Of a stretch of DNA of 32,000 bases, positions 1,604 through 31,718 are shown in pieces (the stretch's first letter is position 1; each line of letters begins with the position of its first letter). The stretch is from Candidatus Saccharimonadota bacterium. GTDB lineage: Bacteria; Pseudomonadota; Gammaproteobacteria; Enterobacterales; Enterobacteriaceae. The notes beneath the pieces were generated by a model. The model did no database searches, was not told the DNA's origin, and was given only the letters and a program-made list of their open reading frames with translations. The stretch covers positions 574,949-606,948 of the forward strand of contig NZ_OZ060402.1 of NCBI RefSeq assembly GCF_964059045.1, written 5' to 3'. The translations under genes were made by a program, and so were the position numbers.

Positions 1604-1720
1604 AAAAATTTTTTTAAAATTTTAAAAATTTAAATTTCCTAAAATAATTTAATATTAAAAAAATAAAATAATTAAATTAAAATATTTTTAAATTATATTA
1701 TTAAAATAATATTTTATAAT

Positions 1721-1779
1721 ATAATTATTGTTGTTGTTAAATATTATCAAATAGAATATTTAACAACAACAATAATTAT
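1721..1779. terminator. perfect 25-bp stem / 9-nt loop hairpin between convergent tRNA-Gly/orn and rpmE (putative bidirectional terminator)
   Basis: ataattattgttgttgttaaatatt (1721-1745) is the exact reverse complement of aatatttaacaacaacaataattat (1755-1779). The hairpin ends 1 nt before the rpmE stop codon. It is AT-only and has no clean U-tract, so terminator function is inferred from position. Confidence 0.55.
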
Positions 1780-1780
1780 T

Positions 1781-1984
1781 TTAAATCATATGAAAACGTT
1801 TATTAAATTTTTCAATTCTTCCACCAGAATCAACTGATCTTTGTTGTCCTGTATAGAATGGATGACAATGAGAACATACATCTAAATTAATATTTTTAGA
1901 AATAGTTGAAAATATTTTTTTAATATGTCCACAAGAACAAGTTGCTGTGATTTCAAAATACTCTGGATGAATGTTTTTTTTCAT
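1781..1984 (-). CDS. rpmE: 50S ribosomal protein L31
   Basis: MKKNIHPEY...CSC....CS.CHPFYTG matches L31. I place the start at the ATG at 1984, which has an aaagga SD 6-8 nt upstream. The track ORF start at 2032 is a TTG inside the upstream palindrome and is rejected. Confidence 0.92.
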
Positions 1985-1992
1985 AATAATCC

Positions 1993-2083
1993 TTTTTAAT
2001 ATAATACAAACATAATTATAATTTACTTTCAAATGATTTGCATTTGAAAGTAAATTATAATTATGTTTGTATTATATTAAAAA
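1993..2083. repeat. perfect inverted repeat, 43-bp arms with 5-nt spacer, abutting the rpmE SD
   Basis: Segment 1993-2035 (tttttaatataatacaaacataattataatttactttcaaatg) is the exact reverse complement of 2041-2083. I verified this base by base. The spacer is atttg. Confidence 0.97.
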
Positions 2084-2539: not shown

Positions 2540-3067
2540 ATGACAACAATCCTTAGTGTTAGAATTAAAAATAAAATAGTCATTGGTGGCGATGGACAAG
2601 CTACTTTAGGCAAGACAGTAATGAAAAGTAATGTTAAAAAAGTACGTAGCCTTTATAATAATAAAATTATTGCAGGATTCGCAGGAGGAACAGCCGATGC
2701 TTTTACTTTGTTTGAATTATTTGAACAAAAATTAGATATGTATCAAGGTCAATTACAAAGATCTGCTATTGAATTAGCTAAAGATTGGAGAACAGACAGA
2801 ATATTACGTAAATTAGAAGCAATACTTGCTGTAGCTGATCGAACATATTCATTAATTATCACAGGAAACGGAGATGTTATTCAACCAGAAGACGATTTGA
2901 TTGCTATAGGATCAGGAGGTCCATATGCACAATCAGCTGCTCGAGCATTATTAAATAATACTCAATTAGATGCTAAAACTATTGTAAAAAAATCTTTAAC
3001 GATTGCTGCAAATATTTGTATATATACAAATCATAATTTTACAATTAAAGAATTATCTTCCGAATAG
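2540..3067 (+). CDS. hslV: ATP-dependent protease subunit HslV
   Basis: This is a 175-aa [11 protein letters not shown]...GGDGQATLG includes the catalytic Thr2, and [10 protein letters not shown] and GSGG are also present. It matches E. coli HslV and lies immediately upstream of hslU. Confidence 0.95.
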
Positions 3068-24496: not shown

Positions 24497-24626
24497 TTTT
24501 AGATCATTACAGTGTTAATTAAAAACAAGGTTGAATCTAGTTAAAACAATATATTATTAGGCCTAATAATATATTGTTTTAACTAGATTCAACCTTGTTT
24601 TTAATTAACACTGTAATGATCTAAAA
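24497..24626. repeat. 130-bp perfect spacerless palindrome (65-bp arms, centre AGGCCT) between tRNA-Trp and the ilvD SD
   Basis: Segment 24497-24561 is the exact reverse complement of 24562-24626. I verified this base by base. The first mismatch occurs at the 24496/24627 pair. Confidence 0.97.
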
Positions 24627-31652: not shown

Positions 31653-31718
31653 CTTTTGTATAAAATATGTCTAAATGCATCTATTAATAGATGCATTTAG
31701 ACATATTTTATACAAAAG
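31653..31718. repeat. 66-bp perfect spacerless palindrome (33-bp arms) abutting the yfgM SD
   Basis: cttttgtataaaatatgtctaaatgcatctatt (31653-31685) is the exact reverse complement of 31686-31718. The outer 10 nt of the distal arm (tatacaaaag) are also the junction sequence of the adjacent tandem array. Confidence 0.97.

Follow-up and report, generated by a model that had tools for sequence, protein, structure and literature searches.

We analyzed a 32,000-nt stretch (the window) of the chromosome of the aphid symbiont Buchnera aphidicola (genome G000). The chromosome, C1, is 606,948 bp long at 22.4% GC and is accompanied by two small plasmids, one of which is a trpEG plasmid 67–70% identical to known Buchnera plasmids. 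Within the window, rpmE lies on the minus strand and hslV on the plus strand, and the two genes diverge from a 555-bp spacer. A long palindrome sits in this spacer next to rpmE, 456 bp from the hslV start. See Table 1 for the window coordinates of these features and of the related palindromes discussed below.

Table 1. Window coordinates of the rpmE-hslV features and of further palindromes in the window
Feature	Coordinates	Strand	Details
Second inverted repeat, rpmE 3' end	1717-1783		29-bp arms with 1 mismatch; perfect core 1721-1745 / 1755-1779; loop 9
rpmE (bL31, 67 aa + stop)	1781-1984	-	ATG 1984-1982; Pfam PF01197, 100.5 bits
rpmE Shine-Dalgarno AAGGA	1990-1994	-	GGA 1992-1990 beyond the stem; A's 1994-1993 are the last stem pairs
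Proximal arm, 43 bp	1993-2035		Would be the 3' arm on the rpmE mRNA strand; its end, ...UUAAAAA, abuts GGA
Centre ATTTG, 5 nt	2036-2040		Repeats the ATTTG of the adjoining arm end (ATTTG-C-ATTTG); complements CAAAT at 2030-2034
Distal arm, 43 bp	2041-2083		Contains -10-like TATAAT at 2076-2071, minus strand; -35-like TTTATA at 2098-2093
hslV, divergent neighbour	2540-3067	+	Start 2540
Sister palindrome, tRNA-Trp/ilvD spacer	24497-24626		65-bp arms, zero loop, perfect; ends at the Shine-Dalgarno: ...CUAAAA followed by AGGAGUUUAAUAUG
Third Shine-Dalgarno-abutting palindrome	31653-31718		33-bp arms, loop 0, perfect; ...ACAAAAG followed by GAAAUAUAUAUG

The open reading frame track supplied with the sequence extends rpmE by 16 codons into the proximal arm of the palindrome, which an earlier note on this DNA had already read as an artefact. 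We agree that the extension is spurious, because position 1 of the Pfam L31 profile aligns to residue 17 of the 83-aa ORF and because the L31 alignments obtained with tblastn to relatives begin at M1. The rpmE starts of the relatives have the same AAGG(A/G) context. The second inverted repeat sits where the tRNA-Gly and rpmE genes converge, and it overlaps the rpmE stop codon (1781–1783). It is of the same class as the rpmE palindrome and has a terminator-like position.

Re-deriving the palindrome from the sequence gave the same exact 43-bp stem as first described, with positions 1993–2035 (TTTTTAATATAATACAAACATAATTATAATTTACTTTCAAATG) the reverse complement of 2041–2083 around the 5-nt loop ATTTG. 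All 43 of the 43 pairs are Watson-Crick, including five G/C pairs, and there are no G-T pairs. The whole element measures 91 bp with a gap of 5 and no mismatches, is 88% A/T, and is wholly intergenic. Imperfect extension to 59-nt arms adds just 9 matches over 16 positions, which we take as chance level in A/T-rich DNA. The minus-strand RNA of the hairpin folds at -54.7 kcal/mol, compared with -14.6 ± 2.9 kcal/mol for shuffled sequences (z = -13.6), and the palindrome as DNA folds at -39.4 kcal/mol per strand (z = -16). In three Markov-3 simulations of the 607-kb chromosome, the longest perfect stem was 16 bp. The hairpin is confirmed to be in the assembly as described, and it is far above chance.

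On the rpmE strand, the RNA would run from the stem end, ...AUUAAAAA, directly into GGAUUAUUAUG, so that the stem stops at the GGA of the Shine-Dalgarno sequence, 8 nt before the AUG. The base of the stem had been described as overlapping the Shine-Dalgarno sequence. This is true of the two A's of AAGGA, which are paired, but the GGA core lies outside the perfect stem. We modeled the cost of opening this region in an RNA that carries the complete hairpin and in one that lacks the distal arm. Opening of AAGGA takes 2.7–4.3 kcal/mol with the full hairpin vs 0–0.9 kcal/mol without the distal arm, and opening of the stretch from -20 to +13 takes 14–17 vs 4–8 kcal/mol. According to these models, an mRNA carrying the full hairpin would be moderately handicapped in 30S binding, and only if transcription starts upstream of 2083. 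If the rpmE transcript begins within the distal arm or further downstream, little effect on the RNA is predicted. In either case, the effect on rpmE would be a side consequence, either tolerated or mildly deleterious. In E. coli, a stable stem-loop just 5' of the rpmE Shine-Dalgarno sequence does not preclude good translation (PMC7297116).

We also looked for transcription signals in and around the palindrome. An intrinsic terminator was considered and rejected, as the sequence after the stem is GGAUUAUUAUG on the minus strand and UAAUCAAAAU on the plus strand, only 5 of its 43 pairs are G/C, and rpmE and hslV are divergent. The earlier doubt about a simple terminator role was therefore well placed, there being no co-directional gene upstream and no U-run on either strand. 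A terminator scan returned two "terminator-like" matches, and both cover the inner 20 pairs, with the remaining arm sequence coming after them. Promoter-like matches numbered 16, with 16.4 expected from the background rate in shuffled sequences. The best such match on the rpmE strand, formed by the -35-like and -10-like hexamers listed in Table 1, would place the start inside the distal arm, and since matches occur at the background rate, it is no evidence of a promoter. The -10-like TATAAT hexamers are mirrored across both arms.

Next, we extracted rpmE-hslV spacers from seven relatives and folded 133-nt rpmE leaders from eleven. None of the 11 leaders had a significant fold, with z scores from -1.5 to +1.0 vs -13.6 here. 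The closest genomes are G003 and G004, with L31 82% and HslV 90% identical, and neither has an inverted repeat in its rpmE-hslV spacer in scans of the locus or of the whole genome. The earlier note had proposed comparing this spacer in relatives for compensatory changes in the two arms, and this comparison found the hairpin missing from every relative sampled, G003 and G004 included. A 10-bp inverted repeat picked out by eye in the G003 leader was considered as an ancestral seed and rejected, as the fold of that leader is not significant (z = -0.29).

The palindrome does not appear to have lengthened the spacer. A homologous anchor in the spacer, TTCACTAATTCAGTAC vs TTAACTAGTTAAGTAA, lies 180 nt (G000) vs 178 nt (G003) from the origin of the spacer extract, and 168 nt vs 166 nt from the rpmE ATG. 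These near-equal distances indicate that no net length was added by the palindrome, consistent with a templated replacement. Elsewhere, the spacer has reached saturation with respect to G003 and G004, at ~60% identity. Both arms match the collinear sequence of G003 and G004 at the null level of identity, and divergence across the spacer is too great to permit a four-point reconstruction.

The position of the hairpin recalls a known regulatory element. The operator through which bL31 represses its own gene in E. coli and other gammaproteobacteria is a conserved, irregular stem-loop immediately before the rpmE Shine-Dalgarno sequence, and its two bulges, B1 (unpaired G residues) and B2, are needed for repression by bL31 (PMC7297116). 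The Buchnera palindrome is likewise a stable stem-loop directly 5' of the rpmE Shine-Dalgarno sequence with AU-rich sequence preceding it. However, the operator hairpin is ~38 nt long (positions 1–38 of the 53-nt Rfam model), irregular, bulged at B1 and B2, and conserved among the gammaproteobacteria, whereas the palindrome is 91 nt long, perfect, unrelated in sequence, and confined to one lineage. We searched the window from 1400 to 2700 with the Rfam model RF03157 at E values up to 10 and found no match, and a search of nine small-genome relatives at E values up to 1 likewise gave none. As a positive control, five free-living relatives were matched directly upstream of rpmE at 31.7–52.2 bits, four of them above the gathering score of 33.2 bits. 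The palindrome therefore shares the position of the L31 operator and does not belong to its family, as there is no RF03157 match and the 43/43 stem has neither bulge. Sub-threshold Rfam matches to the plant and animal miRNA precursors MIR5649 and mir-4703 and to CRISPR-DR50 were dismissed as reflecting a generic long AU hairpin. The MIR5649 match (window 1996–2080) scores 44 bits vs a gathering score of 100 and has no biological meaning here.

We then scanned the genome for palindromes of the same kind. G000 contains 139 perfect inverted repeats with stems of at least 12 bp, while the Markov-3 controls contain 13–18. About 50 perfect stems are at least 18 bp long, and 14 have stems of 41–91 bp. 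When mismatches are allowed and a score of at least 22 is used as the cut-off, the scan yields 37 long repeats, and 28 of these have no mismatch. Arms of at least 40 bp occur in 18 repeats: 13 that are perfect, three with a single mismatch, and two with six. These palindromes all differ in sequence, nearly all are intergenic, and they occur in convergent and tandem spacers too. The rpmE palindrome itself is single-copy, its matches in the genome being itself and its own reverse complement. Two more matches of 30–37 nt (E = 7e-4) are confined to flanking sequence on the far side of the distal arm (query 73–111) and do not take in the palindrome as a whole. A dispersed palindromic repeat family of the REP, RPE, or MITE-like type was rejected because the genome has no related copies.

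By the same measure, the relatives have fewer long repeats: six in G003 (five perfect), three in G004 (all perfect), eight in G012 (seven perfect, none with arms of at least 40 bp), and 11 in G023 (nine perfect, one with a 126-bp arm). The G000 count is 3–12 times that of these four genomes. The G023 palindrome with the 126-bp arms, which starts at C1:544777 of that genome, is perfect with zero loop and, at 252 bp, is the longest in the five genomes scanned.

Several G000 palindromes reach into genes. At C1:30337–30519, one arm repeats the final 62 nt of a gene in inverted orientation. At C1:66063–66204, outside the window, a perfect palindrome with 66-bp arms holds the start codon of a ligA-like gene plus 17 nt of its coding sequence in the right arm, with the inverted copy in the left arm. 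The N-terminus of the ligA-like protein is conserved in relatives, and transcription of both arms would bury the start of this probably essential gene. At C1:259368–259480, also outside the window, in a perfect palindrome with 54-bp arms, the final six codons and the stop codon of an rnhA-like gene mirror the first codons of the downstream gloB-like gene (ATGATGAATT). The gloB-like N-terminus is MMN in G000 vs MLY or MIY in relatives, which suggests that one of the two coding ends served as the template for rewriting the other.

The clearest view of how such arms evolve comes from the palindrome in the tRNA-Trp/ilvD spacer. Counterparts are found in the same place in G003 (C1:619262–619361) and G004 (C1:12635–12733), and all end at the ilvD Shine-Dalgarno sequence. 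The arms (core AAACCTTnnTTnTAATT...) can be aligned across the three genomes though much diverged, and their lengths are 65, 49, and 49 bp in G000, G003, and G004, respectively. Within each species, the two arms are perfectly complementary. Arms that are diverged between species yet perfect within each of them cannot result from independent drift of the two arms. DNA-level correction of one arm against the other is the simplest explanation, as RNA-level selection would allow G-U pairs and bulges.

Palindromes that end at a Shine-Dalgarno sequence recur, with three in the window (rpmE, ilvD, and the palindrome at 31653–31718) plus the two ilvD orthologues. Among palindrome edges, 13/36 lie within 12 nt of gene ends vs 9.0 expected by random placement (P about 0.02). 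Such edges could reflect either selection against burial of the Shine-Dalgarno sequence or a function. We rejected a rule that edges always stop at the Shine-Dalgarno sequence, as the ligA-like and gloB-like palindromes bury the entire start region, and the rule is therefore not general. These engulfed start regions are also hard to reconcile with distal arms that are always co-transcribed with the gene, and some distal arms at least are probably outside the mRNA.

We searched for genes that act on hairpin DNA. In the 99.9%-complete G000 assembly, recA, sbcC, sbcD, and xseA were not found by searches that matched these genes in control genomes, whereas mutS is present. Without recA, any arm correction must be RecA-independent, and without sbcC and sbcD, hairpin DNA is not attacked by SbcCD. 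The sbcB gene (ExoI; C1:554400–555814, outside the window) carries a frameshift at an A10 run, where G003 has A11, and of the 33 related genomes with the gene, G000 alone has it in two frames. The split copy could be a pseudogene, a gene rescued by slippage, or a homopolymer error; G000 has 4–6 frame-split genes, similar to its relatives. Laranjo et al. reportedly found in 2017 that ExoI aborts template switching in E. coli. We rejected the sbcB frameshift as the cause of the palindrome excess because G012, which has no sbcB, has eight long repeats and G023, with an intact sbcB, has 11.

Taken together, we favor, at a probability of roughly 60%, that the rpmE element is a lineage-specific palindrome made by template switching and then maintained and tolerated at the DNA level. 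The palindrome would have arisen after this Buchnera lineage split from its two closest sequenced relatives. In the proposed event, the nascent strand switched template during replication at the central microhomology CAAAT/ATTTG, copied about 43 nt of the complementary strand, and switched back. The result would be an inverted copy next to the rpmE Shine-Dalgarno sequence with little or no net change in length. The same RecA-independent process may then have corrected arm against arm, as the ilvD palindrome suggests, and the hairpin would be tolerated because the cell has no SbcCD hairpin nuclease, nor RecA or ExoVII. Under such correction, perfection carries no information on age, so the palindrome is dated only by its absence in G003 and G004.

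Several observations at the locus agree with template switching, in that the palindrome has no G-T pairs, is unique in sequence, and is absent at the orthologous site in the sister lineages. Stems that are fully Watson-Crick and free of G-U pairs bear the mark of a process acting on DNA and not of selection on RNA. Quasipalindrome mutations always make a palindrome perfect, by templated synthesis (PMC6357072). Template switching has been proposed to be able to create and maintain hairpins (PMC8794818, Monttinen and Loytynoja 2022), and also to homogenize and expand inverted-repeat arms, as in the expansion of an inverted repeat in a yeast promoter (PMC13100816). As in the Ripley model and in the E. 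coli quasipalindrome reporters (PMC6357072), perfect arms can be made in one RecA-independent event; template-switch mutations also homogenize or lengthen arms, yield unique sequences that belong to no family, and can avoid a net change in length. There are differences as well. Documented template-switch events mostly span a few to ~20 nt, whereas the arm here is 43 bp and arms elsewhere in the genome reach 91 bp. Unlike the documented cases, G000 has dozens of palindromes in 0.6 Mb, and we infer the event itself. The palindromes that end at Shine-Dalgarno sequences and the enrichment of edges near gene ends could reflect function and not merely constraint, which counts against reading the palindrome as a by-product.

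An alternative is that the element is an exapted 5'-UTR element, with the whole hairpin transcribed along with rpmE and acting as RNA. It occupies the place of the stem-loop that forms the ancestral L31 operator, immediately before the Shine-Dalgarno sequence (PMC7297116), and the stem stops exactly at the GGA, like the ilvD palindromes of three species and the third palindrome in the window. The modeled rise in the cost of opening the ribosome-binding region and the AU-rich sequence upstream of the distal arm also fit an RNA role. However, the hairpin is conserved in 0/11 relatives, and its Watson-Crick pairing without G-U points to a DNA-level process. Furthermore, the buried ligA-like and gloB-like start regions show that palindrome edges at times ignore the Shine-Dalgarno sequence, and the promoter-like matches are at background, with one of them starting inside the distal arm. 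We consider this explanation unlikely, though the most serious competitor. The earlier note had offered, as one option, an rpmE leader element that sequesters the Shine-Dalgarno sequence or stabilizes the mRNA. Its description of the anatomy, its case against a terminator, and its reading of the ORF artefact stand, but a dedicated leader is not supported, as the hairpin is absent in 11 relatives, is unlike the L31 operator, and is one of 37 unrelated repeats.

A broader version would combine the two ideas, making the rpmE, ilvD, and third Shine-Dalgarno-abutting palindromes a post-transcriptional module that recurs in a genome nearly devoid of transcription factors. Template switching would make these palindromes and keep them perfect, selection through mRNA stability or ribosome loading would favor a stem that ends at the Shine-Dalgarno sequence, and at rpmE the module would replace the lost bL31 operator. 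We find this proposal improbable.

A functional DNA cruciform, extruding under negative supercoiling between the divergent rpmE and hslVU and modulating the local promoters, appears less probable still. Negative supercoiling accumulates between divergently transcribed genes according to the twin-domain supercoiling model. The palindrome lies in a divergent spacer, is perfect, 88% A/T, and short-looped with a fold of -39.4 kcal/mol per strand, and carries mirrored TATAAT hexamers in both arms, all of which would suit a cruciform. However, it is far from hslV (456 bp), it is not conserved, and the promoter matches are at chance level. Palindromes of the same kind also occur in convergent and tandem spacers, so a role at divergent promoters cannot explain the class. 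The DNA-level nature that the earlier note had offered as one option comes closest to the template-switch origin that we favor, but a functional cruciform is disfavored for the reasons just given.

We regard an assembly or sequencing artefact, in which a fold-back chimera was fixed in the consensus, as very unlikely. Exact-protein look-ups with L31 and HslV found no independent assembly of the strain, and the repeats in G000 far outnumber those of the relatives, as an artefact might produce. However, four independent assemblies of related symbionts contain the same kind of perfect palindrome, and this recurrence argues against an artefact. The ilvD palindrome and, by position, the palindrome at ~30 kb appear to be matched in G003 and/or G004, and the ilvD arms are homologous. 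The assembly is also closed and 99.9% complete, with a number of frame-split genes like that of its relatives. Long palindromes in Blochmannia had hampered both Sanger sequencing and assembly with Velvet, and they were then confirmed by gap PCR and by the Illumina reads that closed the gaps (PMC3017870).

Finally, a diverged homologue of the gammaproteobacterial bL31 operator (RF03157), suggested by the same gene, the same place relative to the Shine-Dalgarno sequence, and the retained MKK... N-terminus of bL31, is hardly credible given the lack of an Rfam match at E values up to 10 where five free-living relatives match, a perfect stem without the required B1 and B2 bulges, and no intermediate forms in nine small-genome relatives.

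Returning to the template-switch palindrome as the preferred reading, we compared it with known classes of bacterial palindromes. Rickettsia palindromic elements are hairpin-forming intergenic DNA in multi-copy families of related sequence. REP/BIME elements are also hairpin-forming intergenic bacterial DNA, like the rpmE palindrome, but they form multi-copy families of related sequence (PMC2817692), whereas the rpmE palindrome is single-copy and the G000 palindromes have no common sequence. A closer likeness is found in the ant endosymbiont Blochmannia, where each genome has 6–20 palindromes of 62–136 bp total length, nearly all at least partly intergenic and of unknown function (PMC3017870), and where selection was suggested to maintain them (Williams and Wernegreen 2010; PMC3017870). 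In both cases, the host is a reduced, A/T-rich insect endosymbiont and the palindromes are at least partly intergenic. The rpmE palindrome has the features used to define the Blochmannia type (at least 30 bp, gap of at most 20, at most 3 mismatches, at least partly intergenic, in a reduced endosymbiont genome), and it is an ordinary member of this already known class. The Blochmannia palindromes differ in belonging to another symbiont lineage, and that study, which allowed up to 3 mismatches, did not cover arm co-evolution or Shine-Dalgarno adjacency.

For annotation, the rpmE hairpin should not be labeled an L31 riboregulator, and the extended ORF should not be used. The class as a whole is a natural experiment, as it shows how palindromes arise, grow into gene ends, and stay perfect under drift in a genome without RecA, SbcCD, or ExoVII. 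Within it, the rpmE palindrome is a clean "young" case at a ribosome-binding site and a good test of tolerance vs regulatory raw material.

Two sites around rpmE in other genomes also carry hairpins. The 20–21-bp perfect hairpins in the rpmE-hslV spacers of G002 (L009 1692–1735) and G001 (L010 1894–1939), both genomes of ~530 kb, lie near hslV. They differ by one extra T in one arm and one extra A opposite, which is a compensated indel. The terminator-like location at the rpmE 3' end may itself be a seed for palindrome growth. At the equivalent site 3' of rpmE in G023 (L011 1319–1409), there is a 43-bp perfect palindrome whose sequence is unrelated to the repeat at 1717–1783.
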